From Labilithrix sp. (GTDB taxonomy: Bacteria > Myxococcota_A > Polyangia > Polyangiales > Polyangiaceae): a stretch of DNA of 64,000 bases. Every line of letters begins with the position of its first letter. Position 1 is the first letter of the stretch. The DNA is taken from NCBI GenBank assembly GCA_026128965.1, contig JAHCIY010000002.1:1384108-1448107 (forward strand), written 5' to 3'. Position numbers and translations under genes: made by a program. The notes beneath the pieces were generated by a model. That model was not told the DNA's origin. It saw only the letters and a program-made list of their open reading frames with translations, and made no database searches. Positions 10,205 to 64,000 of the stretch are shown here, in pieces.

Positions 10205-10455
10205 CCCGCGATCGCACCCCCTCCCACGCAGCCAGCACCGGCTAAAGCTCGAAGCGGCCGCGATCGCAGCCCCCTCCCACGCAGCCAGCACCGGCTGAAG
10301 CTCGAAGCGGCCACCGCGAGCGCAGCCCCCTCCCACGCAGCCAGCACCGGGGCCCCAGAAGCGGCCGCGCAAGCGGTTGCGAAGCAACCCGAGCGCGCAG
10401 CGCGAGGGCCGTGTCTGGGGTGGGGGTGTCGGGGGCGAAGCCCCCGACGTTGAGT
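10205..10455 (+). repeat. REP/MITE-like palindromic element (copy 1) with three ~57-nt direct sub-repeats
   Basis: Three copies of gcagccccctcccacgcagccagcaccgg.taaagctcgaagcggcc. This is followed by the core ggggccccagaagcggccgc...cgcgagggccgtgtctggggtgggggtgtcgggggcgaagcccccgacgttgag, which contains the perfect hairpin gtcggggg-cgaag-cccccgac. The same core occurs at ~29794, ~44208 (inverted) and ~60480. Confidence 0.8.
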
Positions 10456-19436: not shown

Positions 19437-19739
19437 GACGACGAAGACTCGTACTTCGCCAAAGCACCGACCGCAAGCTGCTACGCTCCCACGATGCCCC
19501 GACCCCAAGGCAACCGCAGCCGCGCAGGGGCAGCGTCGCGCGCAGGGGCGTCGCCGCGCGTTGGGGCGGCGTCGCCGCTGGAGTCGAAGCCGCGGGTTGG
19601 GGCGGTGTTGTCGTTGGAGCTTGGGTTGGTTGCGGGGGCGTTGACGTCGGTGCGCGGTGGGGCGGAGCGGGCTTCGGCGGAGGCGCTGGCGTGTGGTGGG
19701 CGCGCCGTCGTCTCGCTTGCGGATGCAGCCGTTGCGGGG

Positions 19740-20645
19740 GTGCGCGAGCGGCGCAGGCTCTTGCTGCGCGGCGCTGGTGTCGCGCTCGCGGTGGTGCTCT
19801 TCGCAGGAATGGGCGACGCCGCGCCCGCGCGCGACGCCGCGTCCGCGCGCGATGACGCGTCCGCGCGCGATGACGCGTCCGCGCGCGATGACGCGCCGTC
19901 GTCGTCTGCCTCGATCGACGCGCCGACTTCCACCAATGCGCCCGCGAGCGAGGCGGTCGCCGAAGTCCCGGCGCCGTCACTGCCCGCGAGCGAGCGTGCC
20001 GACGTCGACGTCGCAGCGGAGCCGCCACCTGTCGACGTCGCGGAGGAGGTGCCCACGACCGCGGAGCCCGCCGAGCCGAGGCCGTGGGGTGAGGCGCTCT
20101 CGACGGTGAGCGTCACGAACCAGAACACGGAGGCCCACGCCGATCTCCGGCTCTACAGCGATCACGGCTCGCTGGAGCTCACGGCGTTGAAGGAGCTCAT
20201 GCGCGTGGCCGCCAGCGTCGCCGACGCGCCGGATCAGGAGAATGGCGAGGTCGCCGAGCCGCTCGACGCGCGGCTCGTGCAGCTCGTGTTCCGCGCCTCG
20301 TATCACTTCGGCGGCGCGCCGATCGTCGTCGTGAGCGCGCGGCGCAGGGGCGCGCACGGCAAACACGGATCCGGCGAGGCGCTCGACTTCAAGCTCGAAG
20401 GCGTCACCGCGTCCGCGCTCGCGAGGTACGTGCGGACGTACCCGCGCGCGGGCATTGGAATCTACACGCATCCGAAGACGCAATACGTGCACGTCGACGT
20501 CCGCGAGCGGAGCTACCACTGGGTCGACGGCTCGCCGCCGGGCGTCACATGGCGCGAGCGGCTGCTCGCCGACCCGACGCAAGAGGCACGCGACGCCTCA
20601 TACGTCGGCACGATGGACCTGCCGGAGACAGCGAGCGAACGCTGA
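19740..20645 (+). CDS. DUF882 / peptidase M15A-like (YcbK-family) protein
   Basis: HGKHGSGEALDFKLEGV…YVHVDVR is characteristic of DUF882. GTG start chosen before the hydrophobic segment. Contains an (ASARDD)x3 repeat. The track ORF starts at 19494. Confidence 0.65.
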   Translation: MRERRRLLLRGAGVALAVVLFAGMGDAAPARDAASARDDASARDDASARDDAPSSSASIDAPTSTNAPASEAVAEVPAPSLPASERADVDVAAEPPPVDVAEEVPTTAEPAEPRPWGEALSTVSVTNQNTEAHADLRLYSDHGSLELTALKELMRVAASVADAPDQENGEVAEPLDARLVQLVFRASYHFGGAPIVVVSARRRGAHGKHGSGEALDFKLEGVTASALARYVRTYPRAGIGIYTHPKTQYVHVDVRERSYHWVDGSPPGVTWRERLLADPTQEARDASYVGTMDLPETASER

Positions 20646-21504: not shown

Positions 21505-21987
21505 ATGCCGCTTACGCCCACCCACACGATCGCGGTGACCGTCGCCGACGGCGACATCGACGAGCTCGAGCACGCGAACAACGTGGCCTACGTGCGCTGG
21601 CTGCAAGACGTCGCCGTCGCGCACTCCGCCGCGGTGGGCCTCGACTTCGAGGCGTACCGGCGCATCGGCGGCGTGTTCGTCGTGCGGCGCCAGGAGATCG
21701 ACTACCTGCGTCCCGTCGTTCGCGGCGCGCGTCTCGAGGTGCGCACCTGGATCGACAGCGCGATGGCGGCGAAGTGCGTCCGCGCGACCGAGATCGTCGA
21801 CGAGCACGGCACGACCGTCCTTCGCGCCAAGACGACGTGGGGCTACGTCGACCTCGCGACCGCACGTCCCGCCCGCATCCCGCAAGCGATCCGCGACGCC
21901 TTCATGTTCGGACGCGGCCCCGAATCACGCGACGCCGAACCGCGCGACGCCGAAGCGCGCGCCGCCGAAGCGTGCGACGACGCGTGA
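21505..21987 (+). CDS. Acyl-CoA thioesterase, hotdog fold (YbgC/4HBT-like)
   Basis: ELEHANNVAYVRWLQD…VFVVRRQEIDYLRP is a typical 4HBT pattern. Divergent from the hydrolase gene. Confidence 0.75.
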   Translation: MPLTPTHTIAVTVADGDIDELEHANNVAYVRWLQDVAVAHSAAVGLDFEAYRRIGGVFVVRRQEIDYLRPVVRGARLEVRTWIDSAMAAKCVRATEIVDEHGTTVLRAKTTWGYVDLATARPARIPQAIRDAFMFGRGPESRDAEPRDAEARAAEACDDA

Positions 21988-29773: not shown

Positions 29774-29793
29774 GTTTCACGATGGGTCCGCAC

Positions 29794-29898
29794 GGGGCCC
29801 CAGAAGCGGCCGCCCCAGCGGGCGCGAAGCGCCCCGAGCGCGAAGCGCGAGGGCCGTGTCTGGGGTGGGGGTGTCGGGGGCGAAGCCCCCGACGTTGA
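29794..29898 (+). repeat. REP/MITE-like palindromic element (copy 2)
   Basis: ggggccccagaagcggccgc…cgcgagggccgtgtctggggtgggggtgtcgggggcgaagcccccgacgttgag is near-identical to the core at 10346-10455. Confidence 0.8.
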
Positions 29899-29951
29899 GA
29901 GACCTCTTTCCGAATGGCGCGGAGAAGGGTATGGTCCCCGGTCGACACCAC

Positions 29952-42580: not shown

Positions 42581-43432
42581 ATGCGTAGACTTGGCTTCGT
42601 GAGACGGCTGCGGGGAAGCGTCATGGCTGCGTCGCTATGTGCGGGCGCGTTGTTCGCGTTCACGCCCGGCGACGCGCATGCGGACAGCGAGCGGATCAGA
42701 TACCTCTCCGAGAAGATGAGGGACAGCGACGCGCGTGTTCGCACGTCCGCCGCGCTCTCGCTCGGCGGAACCAACGACGAAGGCGCGGTCGATCCGCTCT
42801 GCGGCGGGCTCGGCGATCGAGAAGAAGGCGTACGCCAGGCGGCGACGGCGGGCTTGAAGCTCCTCAACAAGCGCAGCGCCTTGCCTTGCCTCGAGGCGCA
42901 CCTGCGCACGGAGTCGAGCGCGGCGGTGAGGGACGCGATCTCGCTCGCGATCAACACGATCAACAAGTCGGGCGGCGGCGGGGACGTGATCAAGGACAAC
43001 CCCAACGCCAAGTACTACATCTCTCTCTCGTCGGTCGCGAACGCGACGAGCCGCGCGAACGCGGAGGTCGAGAAGATCGTCCTCAATTCGGTGAAGGCGA
43101 AGCTCGACGCTGCGGGCACGGTGCAGCTCGCGCCGTCGGCGGGGGAGACGCCGGAGAAGGCGCGGCAGGTGATCAAGGACAAGAAGCTGAAGGGCGGCTT
43201 CTACCTCGCGATCGCGATCGACAACTTCCAGTACGACGGCGGCAACCTTCGCGTGAAGGTGAAGATCGGCGTCTTCAATTACCCGAACAAGTCACTGCTC
43301 GGTAACGTCGACAAGTCGCTCACGGCCCAAGGCGTGTCGAGCGGCGACAAGGCGTCCGAGGACCGTCTCTTGGAGCTCGCGGCGGGTCTCGCCAGCGAGC
43401 AGTTCGCGAACAACGCGTCGCAGTTCTTGTGA
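42581..43432 (+). CDS. Secreted HEAT-repeat protein with C-terminal beta-rich domain
   Basis: Signal peptide. HEAT-like repeats (DARVRTSAALSLG…EEGVRQAATAGLKLL…AAVRDAISLAI). Confidence 0.55.
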   Translation: MRRLGFVRRLRGSVMAASLCAGALFAFTPGDAHADSERIRYLSEKMRDSDARVRTSAALSLGGTNDEGAVDPLCGGLGDREEGVRQAATAGLKLLNKRSALPCLEAHLRTESSAAVRDAISLAINTINKSGGGGDVIKDNPNAKYYISLSSVANATSRANAEVEKIVLNSVKAKLDAAGTVQLAPSAGETPEKARQVIKDKKLKGGFYLAIAIDNFQYDGGNLRVKVKIGVFNYPNKSLLGNVDKSLTAQGVSSGDKASEDRLLELAAGLASEQFANNASQFL

Positions 43433-43448
43433 TCTTGAGAGGAACGTC

Positions 43449-44195
43449 ATGACCACGTCCGCCGAGCCCCGGCCCGCAGCTCCCGTCAAATACAAGCGGA
43501 GCATCAAGAACTACCTGCTAGACGCGAGGTTCCAGCTCAAATGGACCGGGCGCATCATCTTCGTCGCGCTCTTCATCAGCGCGCTGATGGGGTTCCTCCT
43601 CTTCCGCACGAGCGACAAGCTGACGGAGCAGAGCCAGCAGGTCATCGCGCAGGGTGAGAAGCAGATCGCCGAGAGCGAGACGAGCGCGAAGATCGTCGCG
43701 ATGCAGATGGCGGAGAAGTACGCGGACGAGCCGGCGCTCGCCAAGAACTTCAAGGACGAGGAGGACAAGCGCATGGCGGCGCTGCAGCAGCAGCGTGACG
43801 ACCTCAAGGCGCAGGCGCTCAAGACGGCGGAGCAGCAGACGACGATGAAGGTCACGCTCGTCGCAGGCCTCCTTCTCCTCGTCGTGCTCATCGGCATCCT
43901 CGGCATCTTCTTCACGCACAAGGTCGTCGGCCCGATTCACATGATGAAGATCCTCCTTCGTCAGGTCGGCGACGGAAAGCTCAACTTCCACCGCAAGCCC
44001 CGCAAGGGCGACGAGCTCCAGGACTTCTTCCAGGTATTCGCCGAAATGGTCGAAAAGCTGAAGGCCCGCCAAGCCGAAGAGGTAAAGACCCTCGAAGCCG
44101 CGATGGCCGAAGCCAAGGCAACCGGCGCCAGCGACGCCGCAATCGCGAAGATCGCCCTCGTCCGCGACGAGATGCAAGCCGCCCTCGGCAAGTAG
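43449..44195 (+). CDS. Two-TM membrane protein with HAMP domain
   Basis: TM1 IIFVALFISALMGFLLF. Coiled-coil periplasmic segment. TM2 LVAGLLLLVVLIGILGIFF. HAMP segment THKVVGPIHMMKILLRQVGDGKLNF. No output domain. Confidence 0.6.
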   Translation: MTTSAEPRPAAPVKYKRSIKNYLLDARFQLKWTGRIIFVALFISALMGFLLFRTSDKLTEQSQQVIAQGEKQIAESETSAKIVAMQMAEKYADEPALAKNFKDEEDKRMAALQQQRDDLKAQALKTAEQQTTMKVTLVAGLLLLVVLIGILGIFFTHKVVGPIHMMKILLRQVGDGKLNFHRKPRKGDELQDFFQVFAEMVEKLKARQAEEVKTLEAAMAEAKATGASDAAIAKIALVRDEMQAALGK

Positions 44196-44207
44196 TCTTT
44201 CACGGTC

Positions 44208-45235
44208 AGGGGCTTCGCCCCCGACACCCCCACCCCGCGAACACGGCCCTCGCGCTGCGCGCTCGGGTTGCTTCGCAACCGCTGTCGCGGCCGCTTTCGC
44301 GGGGCCCCGGTCCCGCTCGCAAAGCCGCTCGCGCACGGCCCTCGCGCTGCGCGCTCGCGCACGGCCCTCGCGCTTCGCTCGGGTTGCTTCGCACCCGCTT
44401 TCGCGGGCCCGGTCGCAAGCCGCTCGCGCAGCGCGCTCGCGCACGGTCCTCGCGCAGCGCGCTCGTGTTGCTTCGCGCCCGCTGTCGCGGCCGCTTCGCG
44501 GGGCCCCGCTCGCAAGCCGCTAGCGCTCGGCGTGCACGCCGTGCGCGCTCGGTGGTGGGCGCAAGCCGCTCGCGCACGGTCCTCGCGCAGCGCGCTCGTG
44601 TTGCTTCGCGGCCGCTTTCGCGGGGCCCCGGTCGCAGGCCGGCCGCGCTCGGCGTGCACGCCGCGCGCGTTCGGTGGTGGGCGCAAGCCGTTCGCGCTCG
44701 GTGGCGGCTGCGACCGGTCGTGGGGCGCAAAGCCGCTCGCGCTCGGTGGTGGGCTCGGCGCGCCCGCTGTTCGCGCTCCGTAGCGCTCGGGCGTCCGCCG
44801 TTCGTGCTCGGTCGTGGTCGTCGGTCGCCAGCCGTTCTCGCTCGGTGGGGGCTCCGGCACAGCCGGTCGCCTCGGTCATGGGCGCGTTCGCGTTCGCGCT
44901 CGTGGGGTCGCCCAGCCGTTCGCCTCGGTCGTGGGGTCCGCCGGCGGTCGTGAGCCGTTCGCGCTCGGTCGTGGGGGCGCCGGTCGCCAGCCGTTCGCCT
45001 CGGTCGTGGGTGCGCCGGCGGTCGTGAGCCGTTCGCGCTCGGTCGTGGGGGCGCCACCGATCGCCAGCCGTTCGCGCTCGGTCGTGGGGGCGCCACCGAT
45101 CGCCAGCCGTTCGCGCTCGGTCGTAGGGTCGCCACCGATCGCCAGCCGTTCGCCTTGGTCATGGGGGCCGCCGGTCGTGAGCCGTTCGCCTCGGTCGTGG
45201 GGTCGCTGCTGGTCGTGAGCCGTTCGCGCTCGGTC
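44208..45235. repeat. ~1-kb noncoding tandem-repeat array seeded by an inverted REP/MITE-like element
   Basis: Begins with the inverted core (ggggcttcgcccccgacacccccacccc…gggttgcttcgcaacc). Followed by about five decaying partial copies. Then ~10 tandem 39-nt units (ccgttcgcgctcggtcgtgggggcgccaccgatcgccag) with point variants. Units lack unique spacers, so it is not a CRISPR. Confidence 0.8.
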
Positions 45236-45648
45236 GTGGGGCGCGCGGCACGGACAGGCGGGCCACGGGCGCAGACGCGGCGCCGCGGGAGGGACGCCGC
45301 ATCTACGTGCGCTTTCTTTAGGCGCGCACGACTCTCCAGTTCGCTGCGACGCCTTCGGTATGCGGCGTCGCGAGGATCTGCCTTTCGCTCCGCATCGCGC
45401 CTGCATCCCAGCCACCGATCCATTCCCGAGTCCACCACCCAGCCCCCAGCATCCGAGTCGCCGCACGCTCCACCGCAAAGCACCCGCACGACGGCCGCTC
45501 GGCCCTCTTCGCGGGCGTCCGACTTCCGCGTTCGGTCGCGAGCGCAGATGCGGAGCGCGCCGCTGGAGCGGGCCTCTGCACGTCGGGTGTCGGGTTCGTG
45601 CGTGTGGGTTTCACGCAACTTCGCGGTGCGGCGACCGAGCAGCGCGCG

Positions 45649-46128
45649 ATGACGCATGCATCGAAGCCGTCCGGCGACGCAGCGGCCTATGAGCGCGCCG
45701 AACATCCCGCGGCGCGCGAACCTCCCGTTGCGCGTGGCGAACGCTCCGCTGCGCGTGGCGAACGGTCTGCGGTGAGGAGCACCGTGTCGGTTGGGCGTGA
45801 GTACGAGGATGCTGCGGTCGAGGTCCTGCGGGGGGCGGGCTTCGAGGTTCTCTGGCGGAACCTGCGTATCGGGCACCTCGAGGTCGACCTCGTCGCGCGG
45901 CGCGATGACCTCGTGGTCATCGTGGAGGTCCGCTACCGCGGCGGAAGTGCGCTCGACACGGCGCTCGCGAGCGTCACACGACAAAAGCGCGCGCGGCTAC
46001 TCCGCGCCGCTCGCGGCCTCTGGCGCGGGCGCCTGAGCAAGATGCAAGGCATCTCCCGAGTCCGCCTCGACGTGATCGCGATCAACCCCTCCGGCACGAA
46101 GTGGATTGAAGGCGCCTTCACGGAGTAG
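45649..46128 (+). CDS. YraN-family (UPF0102) endonuclease
   Basis: GREYEDAAVEVLRGAGFEVLWRNLRIGHLEVDLVARRDDLVVIVEVRYR matches the YraN core. Start uncertain (ATG 45649 or GTG 45772). Confidence 0.7.
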   Translation: MTHASKPSGDAAAYERAEHPAAREPPVARGERSAARGERSAVRSTVSVGREYEDAAVEVLRGAGFEVLWRNLRIGHLEVDLVARRDDLVVIVEVRYRGGSALDTALASVTRQKRARLLRAARGLWRGRLSKMQGISRVRLDVIAINPSGTKWIEGAFTE

Positions 46129-46139
46129 CGCGCGGGCTC

Positions 46140-46859
46140 CTAGTTGCAGGGGCGCTGCTTGTTGTTCGGGTCGCAGTCGCCCTGGGTGCAGGCCGTCGTC
46201 GGGTCGTAGCCCGTGTTCGTCTTGATGCAGTAGGAGCCCGTGAGGCCCTCGTTGCCTTGGCCGATCGACGTGACGAGGCGCTGGCACTGGAAGCCGTCGG
46301 GGCAGTCGCAGAAGGTCTGGTCGCTCGGCTTCTGGCCGTTGATGTCGGCGCAGCGGCACGAGCAGTAGACCGCCTTGTCGGACGCGCGATCGACGCACTG
46401 CGCGGGGACCGCGTTCTGCTTGCGCGGGTCGACGAACTCGCCCGTCGTCGGGTCCTTCGCGCCCTCGATCTTCGTGTCCGTGCCAGGGATCGTGCACGAC
46501 CGGTCGCCGCCGACCGGCGCCTCGCCGCTCGGCTGCTGGCCGTACGGGCAGGACACGCGGCCGCGGAAGTGGTTCACGAGACAGAGGCGCGTGCGGCACT
46601 GGAAGGACTTCGACTCGACGTTGACTTCCTTCTCGTCGAAGCCGAGGAAGTCCTTGTTGTACTCCTGCTCGGGAGTGCAGGGATCGCCGATGCCCTCCTC
46701 GCAGCTCGCGCCCGCGATGAGCGTGATGCCCGCGACCAAACCGCCCAGCTTGGCCAGCGCCTTCGCCGCGCGCCCCAGGCGCGAGGAAATCCGCGAGGTT
46801 TGCGCCACCGCGGGTGCGGCTGCCGACACGGTGGGACGGGGCAAGGCCTCGAGCGTCAT
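46140..46859 (-). CDS. Cys-rich lipoprotein
   Basis: Lipobox LIAGASC. About 30 Cys residues in the mature part (…CSCRCADINGQKPSDQTFCDCPDGFQCQ…). Confidence 0.6.
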   Translation of the reverse strand: MTLEALPRPTVSAAAPAVAQTSRISSRLGRAAKALAKLGGLVAGITLIAGASCEEGIGDPCTPEQEYNKDFLGFDEKEVNVESKSFQCRTRLCLVNHFRGRVSCPYGQQPSGEAPVGGDRSCTIPGTDTKIEGAKDPTTGEFVDPRKQNAVPAQCVDRASDKAVYCSCRCADINGQKPSDQTFCDCPDGFQCQRLVTSIGQGNEGLTGSYCIKTNTGYDPTTACTQGDCDPNNKQRPCN

Positions 46860-47179
46860 CGACGCGAACGGTACTGGTTTGCGGCAAGGAGCGTCAATCT
46901 CATTCAACATCATCGCGGCACCCCATCGTCCTGAAGGAGTGGCGGAGGCCCACACCGACGGCTCACCCAAGACGACACGCAGGGGGCGGGTCTGTGAGCC
47001 GTCGGCCGACCTTCGGACGACTCGTGAGAGAAGAACCGGCAGCCCCGGTTCCGTGCTTGACAACCTCGCTGCGGCCTCCGTACCATCACGCCGCCCGCGG
47101 GGATTATCTTGTCAAAAACGTTCGGGAATTCCCCGGACGAGCTAGGCTCCGCACCTCACGACCCAGAGGAACCACCAGG

Positions 47180-57450: not shown

Positions 57451-59712
57451 ATGGAAGGCAAGGCGAAGGTTGCTCTGACGTTCGCGCTCTACCAGGGCGA
57501 TCAGCTCGTGCGCCGCGACACGATCGCCCAGGACATCGTGAAGGTCGGCAAGGACCCGCGCAGTCACCTGCGCGTCGATGACGATCTCGCGTCGCGCATG
57601 CACGCGGTCATCGAGGTCGCGGGCCCGAACGACATCACCCTGATCGATCTCGGCAACGAGCCGGGCACGATGGTGAACGGCCAGCGCGTCAACAAGTGCA
57701 AGGTGCGTCCGGGCGACCAGATCCAGATCGGGTCGACGATGATTCACCTCGAGAGCGCCGAGCTCGCCGCCGGCGCGCCCGCGCCTGCGCCCACCGCGGG
57801 CGGCACCGCCGCGATGCCGGCGCAGTCGGGGATCTCGGCGCCGCCGCCGCCGCCCACCCCGCAGATGGGCCTCGGCGCTCCGCCGCGCAACACGCCGACG
57901 GAGGCGATCCAGCAGCAGCAGCACTCGACGCAGCTCGGCGGTCACGGCGCTCCGCCGCCCCCGCCGGCCGTCGCCGCCGCGGCCGCGAACCCGTTCGGCG
58001 CGCCCTCGGCCTCGCAGCCGCCGCCGAACCCGTTCGCCGCGCCGGCGGGACATGCCAGCGCGCCGCCTCCGCCGCCGCCGCCGAACCCGTTCGCGCAGGC
58101 GAACCCGTTCGCCGCGGTCGCGAGCCCGTTCGCCGCGGTCGCGAACCCGTTCGTCGCGTCCGCCGCGGAGCAGGGCAACTACGGCATCAACGCGCCGGGC
58201 GGTTCGGACTTCGATCCGAACCAGCCGTACACGTTCTCGCTCGTGAAGAGCGGCCCCGAGGTCCATCCCGACGAGGTCGAGACGCACGCGGCGGCGATCG
58301 AAGTCCTCGTGAAGTGGGACCAGAACACGCTCCACGTCCAGCACAGCTCGCCGCCGAAGAGCTTCTTCGTCGGTGAGGAAGCGAGCGACTACTTCATCCC
58401 GAGCGAGACGCTCGGCACGACGCGCGCGCCGGTCGTCGTCGCGCGCGGCGTCAGCGCGACGCTCATCATGCTCCCGCGCTCGAGCGGCACGGTGGAGATC
58501 CCGGGGCAGGGGACGTTCTCGTTCCAGGACCTCATCGCGTCCGGCCGCGCGCGCTCCTCCTCCGAGATGAGCGGCGCGCACGAGCTCGATCTCCCGAACA
58601 ACGCGAAGGCGAGGATGGAGCTCGAGGGCTCGGGTCTCGTCTTCGAGGTCAGCGCCGTCAACGCGGGCAAGTCGCCGCCGGTCGGCGTGTTCTCGAGCCT
58701 CGAGCCGGCCGCGTACATGTTCATCGGCCTCTCGTTCCTCCTCCACATCGGCATCGTCGCCTCGATGGCGTTCTTCATGCCGAAGATGGGCGGCGACGAC
58801 GCCGAGGCGATCGACCGCGATCAGCTCCTGCTCATGCAGAAGATGCTGAACGCCGCGGCCGAGCGCGAGCAGGAGGAGAAGGAGACCGAGCAGCAGCCGG
58901 ACGCGAACGCCGATCAGAAGGAAGGCGGCACCGGCACGCGCGCGAAGGGGGAAGAGGGGTCGATGGGCAACCCCAACACCCAGGACACGAACAAACGCTA
59001 CGGCGTGCAAGGACCCGCCGACAACGCGGACCCGCACATCGCGCGTCAGGCTGCGCTCAAGGAGGCGCAGGAGTTCGGCATGATCGGCCTCATCAACGTC
59101 GGCGCGGGCGGCGATCCCAACGCCCCGACCGCGCCGTGGGGTCGCGACGACTCGCTCGGCAACGACCCGCTCTCCGCGCGCGGCAACATGTGGGGTGACG
59201 CGATCGGCGACGCGTTCGGCGCCGGCGGTCTCGGCCTCTCCGGCGTCGGCGAAGGCGGCGGCGGTCGCGGCGAGGGCATCGGCCTCGGCAACGTCGGTAC
59301 GCTCGGCCACGGCGCGGGCACCGGCACCGGCCAGGGCTTCGGCAACGGCCACGGCCGCCTCGGCGGCTCGCACGCGACCAAGGCCCCGTCGCTCCGTCAG
59401 GGCACGACGCAGGTCAACGGTCGTCTCCCGCCGGAGGTCATCCAGCGCATCGTCCGCCAGAACTTCGGTCGCTTCCGTCTCTGTTACGAGAACGGCCTCC
59501 GCAACAACCCGACCCTCTCCGGTCGTGTCAGCGTGAAGTTCGTCATCGACCGCTCCGGCGCCGTCTCGACCGCGCAGGACGGCGGCTCGGAGCTCCCGGA
59601 CCAGGGCGTCATCAGCTGCGTCGTCCGCGGCTTCGGCAACCTCTCCTTCCCGCAACCGGAAGGCGGCATCGTCACCGTCGTCTACCCGATCATCTTCAAC
59701 CCCGGCGACTGA
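57451..59712 (+). CDS. FHA-domain inner-membrane protein with Pro-rich linker and TonB_C/AgmX-PglI-type C-terminal domain (GltG/NfsG-like candidate)
   Basis: N-terminal FHA (VKVGKDPRSHLRVDDDLASRMHAVIEV…ITLIDLGNEPGTMVNGQRV). PPPP/NPF-rich region. TM AAYMFIGLSFLLHIGIVASMAFF. Gly-rich segment. C-terminal …VIQRIVRQNFGRFRLCYENGL…GRVSVKFVIDRSGAVS… TonB-C-like fold. Confidence 0.75.
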   Translation: MEGKAKVALTFALYQGDQLVRRDTIAQDIVKVGKDPRSHLRVDDDLASRMHAVIEVAGPNDITLIDLGNEPGTMVNGQRVNKCKVRPGDQIQIGSTMIHLESAELAAGAPAPAPTAGGTAAMPAQSGISAPPPPPTPQMGLGAPPRNTPTEAIQQQQHSTQLGGHGAPPPPPAVAAAAANPFGAPSASQPPPNPFAAPAGHASAPPPPPPPNPFAQANPFAAVASPFAAVANPFVASAAEQGNYGINAPGGSDFDPNQPYTFSLVKSGPEVHPDEVETHAAAIEVLVKWDQNTLHVQHSSPPKSFFVGEEASDYFIPSETLGTTRAPVVVARGVSATLIMLPRSSGTVEIPGQGTFSFQDLIASGRARSSSEMSGAHELDLPNNAKARMELEGSGLVFEVSAVNAGKSPPVGVFSSLEPAAYMFIGLSFLLHIGIVASMAFFMPKMGGDDAEAIDRDQLLLMQKMLNAAAEREQEEKETEQQPDANADQKEGGTGTRAKGEEGSMGNPNTQDTNKRYGVQGPADNADPHIARQAALKEAQEFGMIGLINVGAGGDPNAPTAPWGRDDSLGNDPLSARGNMWGDAIGDAFGAGGLGLSGVGEGGGGRGEGIGLGNVGTLGHGAGTGTGQGFGNGHGRLGGSHATKAPSLRQGTTQVNGRLPPEVIQRIVRQNFGRFRLCYENGLRNNPTLSGRVSVKFVIDRSGAVSTAQDGGSELPDQGVISCVVRGFGNLSFPQPEGGIVTVVYPIIFNPGD

Positions 59713-60479: not shown

Positions 60480-60638
60480 ACGCGAACGGGGCTGGGGTGT
60501 CGGGCCGAAGCCCCGACGTTGAGAACGGGGCCCCAGAAGCGGCCGCGAAAGCGGGCGCGAAGCGCCCCGAGCGCAAAGCGCGAGGGCCGTGTCTGGGGTG
60601 GGGGTGTCGGGGGCGAAGCCCCCGACCATGAAGAGACT
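60480..60638 (+). repeat. REP/MITE-like palindromic element (copy 4; two hairpin cores)
   Basis: A degenerate core gtcgggccgaagccccgac is followed by a full core …cgcgagggccgtgtctggggtgggggtgtcgggggcgaagcccccgac. Confidence 0.8.
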
Positions 60639-61770: not shown

Positions 61771-64000
61771 ATGGAACTTCAGGAACGTCTGAAGCAGCTC
61801 GAAACCGTTCGTGACTGGCAGGGGCTCGTCGAGGAGCTCGAAAAAGGCATCCAGTCGACGACTGCGAACGAGTCGAAGGCGAGCTTCCATCTGCGTCTCG
61901 GCAAGGTGCTGGAGTCGAAGTTTCTCTCCGGCGTCAAAGCGCTGAAGCACTTCCAGGACGCGTACAAGCTCAATCCGGCGCTCGGCGAGAGCCTCGAAGC
62001 CGCGCGCGCGGTGTACTGGAGCCTCGGCAAGCTGAACATGGTGCAGAAGCTCCTCGAGCTGGAGCTGCGCACGCACAAAGAAGGGGAGGTCGCGAGCGCG
62101 CTCCTCCTCGAGCTCGCCGACGTCCTTTGCGACATGGGCGACTACGACAAGGCGACGAGCACGTACGCGCGCTCGCTCGCGACGAGCGGCGGCAGCAACG
62201 CCGACGCGCGCGCGTGCCTCGAGGACGTGCAGGCCGAGAGCGGCTCCTGGGAGCAGCACGTCGCTGCGCTCCAGAGCGCCGCCGCCTCCGCGGAGCCCGC
62301 TGCGCGCTGCCGCCTCTACCTGCGCGCCGCGCGCATCACGCGCCGCTTCCAGCCGGACGGCGTGCTCGCGCTGCTGCAGGAGGCCTACGCCGCGGACCCG
62401 AGCGACAAGCAGGCCGCCGCGCTCTTCGAGGGCGCGCTCGCGGAGGCGGGGCAGCTCGATCAACTCGATCAGTTCCAGACGCGCCTCCTCCAGGCGGAGC
62501 CGGATCGCGTCCGCCGCGCGCACCTCGCGCTCGTCTTCGGCACGCGCTGGGTCTCGCGTCATCAGAACGTCGACAGCGGCTCGAAGTACCTCGAGGAGTC
62601 GATCAAGCTCGATCCCGAGAACGAGGGCGCCTTCCACTACCTCCGCGACGCGTACGGCCGGAAGGGCGGCGACTGGGATCGCGTGCTCACGCTCGCCGAA
62701 GAGGCCGTCACCGGCGCCGGCGAGAACGGCAACGCGACCTTCCTCCTCGCGCAGGCGGGCACGATCGCGTGGCGTCAGCTCGGCAACTTGATCCGCGCGC
62801 GCACGGTGTTCGAGCGGCTCAACCAGATCTCGCCCGAGCACCCGATCCTCCGTGCCTTCGAGGCGCAGATCGGCGAGCCGCTCGGGCAGCAGCAGAAGAC
62901 ACCGTCGATCCCGCCGCCGGTCCGCCAGAGCGTGCCGCCGCCCGCGCCGACGCCCTCCCCGCGCGACACGGTTCCCCCGGTTCGCCAGAGCGTGCCGCCG
63001 CCCGCGGCGGTGGTCAGCGAGCCGCCGAAGCCGCTCGTCTCCGAGCCGCCGCCCGCGCCCGTCGTCGTCAGCGAGCAGCCCCCGCAGCAAGTGAGCGCGC
63101 CGCCCGCGCAGGTGAGCGCGCCGCCCGCGCAGGTGAGCGCACCGCCCGCCGCCAGCGTCCCCCCCGCCGGCGATCCCGGCAAGATCGCGGAGCTCCGCGC
63201 GCTCGCCGACAAGCAAGAGGCGAACAAGCGCTACAACGAGTACGTCAAGACGCTCCTCCAGCTCGCGCAGCTCGTGCCCGAGCCCGACGAGAAGGTCGCC
63301 CTCTACACGAAGGCAGCCGAGCTCTACACCGGCAAGTTCGCCAACCAGGCGGAGGCGGTGAAGGCCTACGAGGCGGTCATCGCGATCGATCCGGAGAACC
63401 GGAGCGCGATCGACTACCTCCGTGGAATGTACGAAAAGCGTCGAGACTGGGAGAAGCTCCTCGGTCTCGAGCGGAGGGAGGCGGAGCGCCTCTACGGCGA
63501 CGAGCGCGCGCGGAAGTTCCTCGAGATCGCGAAGCTCGCGACCGAGCGCGTCAAGAAGCCGGACGTCTGCATCGAGCTCTGGGGCCAGGTCCTCGAGAGC
63601 GATCCGTCGAACGCCGAGGCGCTCGGCGCGCTCGCCGGCCTTTACGAGCGCAACAAGGACTACGACACGCTCGCGCAGGTCCTCGAGAAGCAGGCCGAGG
63701 TCACCTTCGACAACGCGGCGAAGGTCCAGATCCTCACGAAGCTCGGCACGATCTACGGCGATCGCCTGAGCAACGACGAGGGCGCGGTCAGCGCCTGGCG
63801 CGCGCTCCTCGCGATCGAGCCGAACGACCGCAAGGCGCAGGAGGCCCTCAAGAAGAAGTACCTCGCGCTCGGTCGCTGGGACGACCTCGAGGTCTTCTAC
63901 GCCGAGAGCGGCAAGTGGGACGAGTTCATCCGCGTCCTCGAGCAGCAAGAAGGCAAGGAGACCAACCCCGAAGCCAAGATCGGGATGCTCTTCAAGATCG
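61771..64000 (+). CDS. Large cytoplasmic TPR-repeat protein, 3'-partial (continues beyond window)
   Basis: RBS gagggaa before ATG 61771. The frame is open to the window end, so it is absent from the complete-ORF track. TPR repeats. Central Pro-rich repeat (PPVRQSVPPPA x2, QVSAPPA x3). No signal peptide. The antisense ORF 61585..63948 is an artefact. Confidence 0.7.
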   Translation, partial: MELQERLKQLETVRDWQGLVEELEKGIQSTTANESKASFHLRLGKVLESKFLSGVKALKHFQDAYKLNPALGESLEAARAVYWSLGKLNMVQKLLELELRTHKEGEVASALLLELADVLCDMGDYDKATSTYARSLATSGGSNADARACLEDVQAESGSWEQHVAALQSAAASAEPAARCRLYLRAARITRRFQPDGVLALLQEAYAADPSDKQAAALFEGALAEAGQLDQLDQFQTRLLQAEPDRVRRAHLALVFGTRWVSRHQNVDSGSKYLEESIKLDPENEGAFHYLRDAYGRKGGDWDRVLTLAEEAVTGAGENGNATFLLAQAGTIAWRQLGNLIRARTVFERLNQISPEHPILRAFEAQIGEPLGQQQKTPSIPPPVRQSVPPPAPTPSPRDTVPPVRQSVPPPAAVVSEPPKPLVSEPPPAPVVVSEQPPQQVSAPPAQVSAPPAQVSAPPAASVPPAGDPGKIAELRALADKQEANKRYNEYVKTLLQLAQLVPEPDEKVALYTKAAELYTGKFANQAEAVKAYEAVIAIDPENRSAIDYLRGMYEKRRDWEKLLGLERREAERLYGDERARKFLEIAKLATERVKKPDVCIELWGQVLESDPSNAEALGALAGLYERNKDYDTLAQVLEKQAEVTFDNAAKVQILTKLGTIYGDRLSNDEGAVSAWRALLAIEPNDRKAQEALKKKYLALGRWDDLEVFYAESGKWDEFIRVLEQQEGKETNPEAKIGMLFKI

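Follow-up and report, generated by a model that had tools for sequence, protein, structure and literature searches.

The locus described here raises the question of what a kilobase of tandemly repeated DNA between two co-directional genes of Labilithrix is, from where it arose, and whether it has any function. It lies within a stretch of 64,000 nucleotides, hereafter the window. Around the locus, ftsY is followed by genes for a CarboxypepD_reg protein, a HEAT-repeat protein and a 248-aa membrane protein, then by yraN (UPF0102), by a hypothetical gene on the opposite strand, and by genes for TPR proteins. This order around the array is conserved in all the relatives that were fetched. The gene upstream of the array (43449-44195, + strand, GC3 0.84-0.98) encodes the 248-aa protein, which has two predicted transmembrane segments and a HAMP-like region, and which finds an exact match in two NCBI Labilithrix MAGs. 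This protein matches the full length of the HAMP profile with a sub-threshold score, 14.3 bits versus the Pfam cut-off of 25, so that of the "HAMP gene" named in the preliminary description the HAMP-like region stands, but not a match at the Pfam threshold.

The gene downstream of the array is yraN, located at 45774-46128 on the + strand (Pfam PF02021, E-value 2e-18). Alignment with four orthologues places its true start near 45774 and not at the called positions 45598 or 45604, given that the long ORF is homologous to these orthologues only from about residue 60 onwards. For this reason, the non-coding gap between the gene of the 248-aa protein and yraN, which extends over ~1.58 kb (44196-45773), is larger than was first described. 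The repeats occupy positions 44199-45249 of this gap, and the remainder, from 45250 to 45773, is a unique non-coding spacer without assigned strand, in which the GC3 signal of genes is absent. This spacer contains a weak terminator-like hairpin (45298-45311) and a 21-nt repeat in 2.3 copies (45716-45764) detected by Tandem Repeats Finder (TRF), and it has no similarity to the intergenic DNA of the relatives or to other sequence that was fetched. Terminator and promoter scans gave nothing above shuffles.

It is clear that the tandem-repeat array of about 1 kb is real, as had been claimed. TRF, the check proposed in the preliminary description, was run and does report tandem repeats. At 44906-45244 it finds 8.9 copies of a 39-nt unit (score 410, with 85% matches and 6% indels), together with a higher-order period of 113 nt in 3.0 copies (score 425). 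A 34-nt period (4.7 copies) occupies 44732-44883, and one of 26 nt is found at 44326-44465. The 24-nt core of the unit, AGCCGTTCGCGCTCGGTCGTGGGG, occurs six times at no more than three mismatches, when 0.01 occurrences would be expected. The region is therefore composed of head-to-tail units within the ~10-100-bp range of minisatellites, at a level above chance. Within the 64-kb window the unit core is confined to the array locus, and no tandem array is larger than this one.

The array can be divided in three zones, namely a full copy of a repeat element, here called E, head-less partial copies of E with junction DNA, and short units. The full-length copy of E (~113 nt) is found at 44199-44316 on the + strand, where the covariance model R1 matches it with 110.4 bits (E-value 1.5e-19). 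It starts 4 nt behind the TAG stop codon of the gene of the 248-aa protein, and its head hairpin, GTCAGGGGC-TTC-GCCCCCGAC, is located at 44205-44225. The second zone (44317-44686, + strand) contains units of ~26-133 nt and is covered by the repeat families D4, D7 and D8. In this zone the model R1 matches partial copies of E at 44354-44419, 44442-44495 and 44581-44622, each of them in the same orientation as the full element and followed by the junction module, CGCAAGCCGCTCGCGC. These copies can be considered as decaying because their mismatches sit in the internal hairpins, with the stems of E being lost. The decaying partial copies that had been noticed behind the REP element are thus found, as three head-less copies of E matched by R1. 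This arrangement of one full and at least three partial copies of E in the same orientation, each with its junction module, is that of a tandem REP/REPIN cluster.

The third zone, from 44687 to 45249, is made of ~15 short units whose common core, GCCGTTCGC(GC)CTCGGTSGTGG, derives from the junction. Six of these, at 44687-44914 on the + strand, are degenerate units of 31-53 nt with the junction-derived core GCCGTTCGCGCTCGGTGG and are 50-77% alike in pairwise comparison. The other nine, at 44915-45249 on the same strand, are better kept (31-39 nt, 75-100% pairwise) and belong to two subtypes, characterized by GCGCTCGG or GCCTCGG, which partly alternate as dimers and give rise to dimeric, trimeric and higher-order repeats. 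Among them, a recent triplication (45028-45144) comprises the units at 45028, 45067 and 45106, which are 94-100% identical, with only those at 45028 and 45067 being fully identical. The array stops abruptly at ~45249 with an intact core. Of the approximately ten near-identical 39-nt units that had been reported, the 39-nt period is retained, but the units are about 15 in number, range from 31 to 53 nt, and include a single identical pair among the last nine. The decay towards 45235 that had been proposed runs in the reverse direction, with the degenerate units upstream and an intact core at the downstream end.

The element at the start of the array is a dispersed, hairpin-rich, REP/BIME-like intergenic repeat of ~113 nt. 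The window contains four full copies, all intergenic, one in the sense orientation and three antisense to the flanking genes. Besides the copy in the array, these are found at 10341-10454 (125.1 bits with R1), at 29786-29899 (a single copy, 118.7 bits), and at 60522-60632 (121 bits, followed by a head-only partial copy), all on the - strand, which agrees with the description of the REP element in the array as "inverted". Outside the window, E was found in Labilithrix STL-MYX21 (two copies), in L004, and in a relative with 71% identity. An exact-match scan for the head of E across GTDB species representatives retrieved only Labilithrix STL-MYX21 and one plasmid-like contig, while a BLAST search with 125 nt of E against plasmids gave no match. 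Nothing specific was found in the literature on the repeats of Labilithrix.

The consensus of E was derived from seven full copies, namely the four of the window, the two of STL-MYX21, and the one of the 71%-identical relative. It folds into a 9-bp head hairpin (GTCGGGGGC-TTC-GCCCCCGAC), a C-rich tail, and a long closing stem around three small hairpins. RNAalifold applied to the MAFFT alignment gives 33 pairs, seven of which have compensatory double changes. In the model-fitted alignment, 99.1% of the cells are paired and seven pairs show changes on both sides, versus 0-1 in slid controls; these counts come from seven sequences only and from an alignment fitted to the model, and the MAFFT-based RNAalifold result gives the same seven pairs. 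Among the seven copies, no single-sided (G-U) intermediates were seen in the stems. The closing stem co-varies as a whole, being CCCCGCGAA/TTCGCGGGG in the array copy, CCCCGGAG/CTCCGGGG in STL-MYX21, and CCCCAGA/TCTGGGG elsewhere. Given that E is found in either orientation with respect to genes, the selected structure is as likely to operate on DNA as on RNA, a situation comparable to that of REPs.

The CGTC-tagged REP superfamily (Di Nocera et al. 2013) offers the closest comparison for the head of E, which likewise forms a GC-rich 9-bp stem-loop, often with a CGTC or GGTC start, and is intergenic and present in either orientation. In five of nine heads the stem is preceded by CGTC and in the rest by GGTC. 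In the predicted stem of E, the GTC forms pairs with GAC, whereas the tag is unpaired in the published elements, and the stem of E is without A-T pairs at positions 1-2 and has a loop of 3 nt versus 4-5 nt (PMC3733652). Membership of E in this superfamily was not accepted, because the tag is predicted to be base-paired in E. The published CGTC-tagged families include none reported from Myxococcota. With ~113 nt and five helices, E also differs from the single palindrome of 20-40 bp that characterizes REPs, and its size is closer to that of BIME, MITE or ERIC-class elements.

An observation apart concerns 37 nt of the E head in the array copy, GGTCAGGGGCTTCGCCCCCGACACCCCCACCCCGCG, which are identical (37/37) to a hairpin that precedes a MobA/MobL relaxase ORF by ~15 nt. 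This ORF is located on a plasmid-like contig of MobQ type (~60% GC), which was binned as Tepidiphilus and also encodes KfrA and a resolvase. The hairpin at the same position is ~75% identical in MobQ plasmids of Acidithiobacillus ferrooxidans and Comamonas resistens. This plasmid leader hairpin lies between the start of mobA and a region that we take, from the RSF1010 oriT sequence, to be an RSF1010-like nic/IR region. The shared sequence implies that the head of E and the plasmid leader hairpin have a common ancestry or have undergone sequence exchange.

Local duplications are also seen at other copies of E. A different array, of a 53-nt unit in 2.7 copies (10205-10350), begins precisely where the copy at 10341-10454 has its 3' end, and its unit ends with the E-tail-like sequence GCCGCTTCGAGCTTYAGCCGG. 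A head-only copy at ~60480-60520 lies next to the full copy at 60.5 kb, and in STL-MYX21 the two copies of E are 219 nt apart. Copies of E tend, therefore, to carry local tandem duplications, a pattern that is already known for REP/REPIN clusters. In Pseudomonas fluorescens SBW25, tandem arrays of REPINs including their flanks can reach more than 700 bp, and arrays of 12 REPs are also found (Bertels and Rainey, PMC3116915). The reiteration of REPs or REPINs in tandem together with flanking DNA is thus already documented (PMC3116915, PMC3733652).

The content of the gap between the two genes differs markedly among the relatives. It measures 35 nt in two of them, 107 nt with one inverted E in the 71%-identical relative, 239 nt with a 7-nt (TCCTCGG)n microsatellite in two others, and 679 nt of unrelated sequence in a further two. 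A relative with an 83%-identical protein has a gap of 133 nt that contains a terminator-like hairpin and neither E nor the array, and in one with an 85%-identical protein a different gene is found downstream at this locus. These differences indicate that the insertion of E and the array are young and private to the lineage of the window, and the position of the gap is itself a variable spot. Searches with the unit core gave no true match in JGI metagenome contigs, where two unrelated single matches were attributed to chance, and no match in viral contigs. A match of 15/16 nt (E-value 0.086) between the unit core and the 5' coding region of yraN in the relative with the 83%-identical protein was also judged to be due to chance.

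Taken together, these observations make it likely that the region is a non-coding, lineage-specific minisatellite that arose by local tandem duplication at one copy of E. The array grew out of a REP-like dispersed element, as had been proposed, given the continuity of the graded series that starts with the full E, passes through head-less copies with junction DNA, and ends in units made of the junction alone. In the proposed sequence of events, a copy of E would have inserted just behind the stop codon of the gene of the 248-aa protein, after which its 3' part and the adjacent junction DNA would have been reiterated in units of ~80-130 nt. The junction module alone would then have been duplicated, with the unit growing from 27 to 34 and to 39 nt, followed by duplications of monomers, dimers and trimers, the triplet at 45028-45144 being presumably the latest, while older units would have decayed through point mutations and small indels. 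The units would have multiplied by slipped-strand mispairing between neighbouring copies or by their unequal recombination, and the early duplications may have been favoured by the stable hairpins of E. The graded identity of the units, the recent triplication and the higher-order periods are typical of evolution by unequal exchange. Slippage may still be ongoing, with an instability that is at present probably modest, except for the triplet at 45028-45144, because most units have diverged. This origin from E leaves ~520 nt of the gap (45250-45773) unaccounted for.

With respect to function, the array itself presumably has no dedicated one. A likely passive consequence of its growth is that yraN has been uncoupled and pushed ~1.6 kb away from the gene that it abuts in relatives. 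The head hairpin of E, which is without a U-tract, and its GC-rich copies would be located at the 3' terminus of the message from the upstream gene, like REPs in E. coli, and may have an effect on transcription. The + strand of the array contains 4-6% A and 16-20% T, and a constraint, for example by a candidate binding site, could lie behind this strand asymmetry and the kept 24-nt core.

Several other explanations have to be weighed against this origin by duplication, some of which attribute a product to the array. A gene or pseudogene for a repeat protein, with repeats such as TTERERLAIGGAP, is suggested by a 592-aa ORF on the - strand, by ORFs of 117-200 aa in other frames, and by a modal unit of 39 nt that is divisible by three. 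The stop-free frames that give rise to these ORFs are explained by the scarcity of A on the + strand. Across 44200-45750 all three codon positions have a GC content of 0.65-0.84, whereas the real genes of this region have GC3 values of 0.9-1.0 and GC2 values of 0.3-0.55, and unit lengths of 31-53 nt would disrupt any frame. The 592-aa ORF has no Pfam match, the six-frame concatenated translation of 44880-45252 finds no protein match among 5.8 billion clusters, and no gene is called across the array in the public record. The coding reading is thus already effectively refuted, with practically no probability left to it, and the earlier view of these ORFs as artefacts is confirmed. A search by tblastn for a pseudogene remnant of the WGR-like gene found behind the orthologue in the relative with the 85%-identical protein gave nothing credible. 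CRISPR was likewise rejected, in agreement with the preliminary description, given that the units abut without unique spacers of constant length, the repeats are degenerate and variable in length, and no cas gene is found among the neighbours (HEAT, HAMP-like, yraN, TPR). A functional non-coding RNA, structured or processed, or a 3'UTR or 5'UTR with a riboregulatory role, would be compatible with the location of the array between two genes that share its direction, where it is probably transcribed by read-through, and with the strong structure of the E copy that seeded it. Folding argues against this possibility, since the short-unit array is less stable than its dinucleotide shuffles on both strands (z of +2.9 and +3.1), single short units have no significant hairpin (z of about 0), and the E-derived half, in which the partial copies have lost the stems of E, has a non-significant z of -1.07. 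An Rfam covariance search of both strands of 43000-47000 gave no match at E-values up to 1, and the array is absent from every relative that was examined. The structured RNA that the preliminary description had allowed for is, therefore, very unlikely.

The remaining alternatives concern the DNA itself. An array of binding sites (iterons, a centromere or operators), or a topological, gyrase-binding element similar to BIME-2, would have its core GCCGTTCGCGCTCGGTCGTGG under selection, and is favoured by a core of 21-24 nt that most units retain despite their variable tails, by an imperfect palindromic frame, CCGnnCGCGnnCGG, that can be read from the sequence of the core, and by the marked strand asymmetry. 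Nonetheless, the spacing of the units is irregular (31-53 nt), the unit is found nowhere else in the window, the JGI metagenome contigs or the viral contigs, the array is missing at this locus in all the relatives, and its neighbours (HEAT, yraN, TPR) include no adjacent partition, replication or regulator gene. Recent duplication explains the conservation of the core equally well, and a selected binding site is considered unlikely. Still less probable is a contingency or phase-variable spacer, as suggested in the preliminary description, in which the number of units would switch the expression of yraN or of the operon. The copy number of tandem repeats can change, and one triplet of units, at 45028-45144, is near-identical. 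The repeats found here are not the 1-9-nt near-perfect repeats, within an ORF or between promoter elements, by which contingency loci are recognized, given that the units are 31-53 nt long and mostly diverged (75-90% alike), for which slippage is slower. Moreover, more than 520 nt separate the end of the array from the start of yraN downstream, no promoter-like element was found across it, and relatives manage with gaps of 35-133 nt. An explanation of another kind, which is compatible with the origin by local duplication, is that the unit count is in part an artefact of collapse or expansion during assembly, given that the source is a metagenome-assembled genome and that the 117 nt at 45028-45144 consist of units with 94-100% identity. 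Private substitutions and indels, which anchor reads, are found in most units, and over 20,747 nt the window agrees without mismatches with contig JAHBWE010000008.1 (GCA_019637155.1), although the two may be one and the same assembly. Identical flanking proteins are encoded in a second NCBI MAG, with MCW5812966.1 on a contig of 2.5 Mb. An artefact could shift the count by a few units and could not create the structure of the array; its contribution is improbable, if slightly less so than a selected binding site.

Among known systems, tandem REP/REPIN and BIME clusters, such as those of P. fluorescens SBW25 and the BIME-2 elements of E. coli, resemble the array in the head-to-tail reiteration of a GC-rich hairpin repeat and its flank over several hundred bp of intergenic DNA (PMC3116915, PMC3733652). 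REPs are mostly located downstream of coding regions (PMC3733652), and the array is likewise found behind a gene, between co-directional genes. The differences lie in the seed, given that E has ~113 nt and a multi-branch fold while a REP is a single palindrome of 20-40 nt, and in the units, which shrink and diverge along the array while REPIN-plus-flank modules are near-identical. Furthermore, most of the array (44687-45249) consists of non-palindromic, junction-derived units without a REP-like hairpin. The array also resembles MIRU-VNTR loci and other bacterial minisatellites, in that units of some tens of bp follow each other head to tail in a high-GC genome. MIRUs occupy intergenic regions within operons. 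They are minisatellites whose copy number is variable between strains (PMC3635867). The difference is that a MIRU unit family is found at many loci, whereas the short unit of the array is found at one locus across the window, the JGI contigs and the viral contigs. CRISPR arrays share with it only repeats of ~30-40 nt at one locus.

A more active origin can also be conceived, in which E, with its head hairpin in common with MobQ plasmid leaders, would be an undescribed structured mobile family of Labilithrix that is nicked or recognized by a relaxase-type or RAYT-type HUH enzyme, with replication that is initiated at a nick on its 3' side, or that stalls at its hairpins, spawning the arrays. 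This proposal has little probability, and the action of a relaxase or other HUH enzyme on E is pure speculation. If it were true, the 1-kb array, the array at 10205-10350 and the duplicated copies of E would be footprints of an active process and not of passive slippage.

Returning to the minisatellite that most likely arose by local duplication at E, this array is an ordinary kind of bacterial junk-DNA expansion, a tandem cluster derived from a REP-like element, and as it stands the finding matters little beyond its immediate implications. For the typing of strains in this uncultured lineage, the array offers a candidate VNTR marker, and it serves as a warning for gene callers and assemblers, given its long spurious ORFs and its likely role as a contig break point. 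The family of E may merit a description in the manner of Rfam or Dfam, with its seven compensatory pairs and a head that is common to the leaders of MobQ plasmids. For the biology of the organism, Labilithrix, a member of the Myxococcota, has its own structured REP/BIME-like family, and REP-like elements can seed kilobase-scale minisatellites that split tightly packed gene pairs.

The head of E, the dispersed intergenic repeat from which the main array derives, is identical over 37 nt (44204-44240 in the window) to positions 4280-4316 of contig L002 (JAQUGB010000027.1), an identity that crosses phyla. The matching segment of L002 is a hairpin located approximately 15 nt 5' of an ORF for a MobA/MobL relaxase. 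The contig, binned as Tepidiphilus, is plasmid-like with a GC content of approximately 60%, and KfrA and a resolvase are also encoded on it. Acidithiobacillus ferrooxidans and Comamonas resistens plasmids of the MobQ type (sequences L016 and L017) have a homologous hairpin with approximately 75% identity, and in both it occupies the same site, with an oriT-like nic/IR region followed by the hairpin and then by mobA.

E appears to be modular, given that a variant from Labilithrix STL-MYX21 (L004, 6960-7052), placed between an rpoA-like gene and rplQ, has had its inner domain swapped. The head and the closing stem are kept in this variant, and the place of the inner domain is taken by a terminator-like hairpin with a T-run behind it.

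Local repetition also accompanies other copies of E in the window. The second copy (10341-10454, minus strand) lies within 10205-10454, and its 3' end is directly adjoined by an unrelated tandem array of 2.7 units of 53 nt, the unit of which has E-tail-like sequence at its end. This is followed by a short inverted head-tail fragment, GGGTGGGGGTGGGGG, beside the neighbouring gene's stop codon. Within 60480-60632, the fourth copy has a head-only partial copy, TCTCAACGTCGGGGCTTCGGCCCGACACCCCAGCCCC, behind it, which is a further local duplication of E. Other tandem repeats of the window, with periods of 15-42 nt, are found at 19527-19897, 21913-21979, 57953-58165 and 63081-63149, and are probably repeats inside coding regions of a high-GC genome.

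Directly 5' of the yraN start, a tandem repeat of 2.3 units of 21 nt, GCGCGTGGCGAACGSTCYGCK, is present (45716-45764). It falls within the N-terminal extension with which YraN is predicted by gene callers (174-aa or 176-aa models). In the relatives L006 and L007 (5748-5810), the intergenic position of the main array has a 7-nt microsatellite, (TCCTCGG)n, and then GGCTCCAGGG repeats. This intergenic spot gathers different repeats, lineage by lineage.

The syntenic position of yraN, a UPF0102 gene, is constant among these Labilithrix lineages, but its strand differs. The gene is on the plus strand in the window (45774-46128) and in the relatives L008 (5779-6156) and L018 (996-1193), and on the minus strand in L005 (5851-6213), L006 (5986-6375) and L010 (6426-6812). 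The occurrence of opposite strands at one syntenic position implies that yraN would have undergone single-gene inversions at this variable spot.
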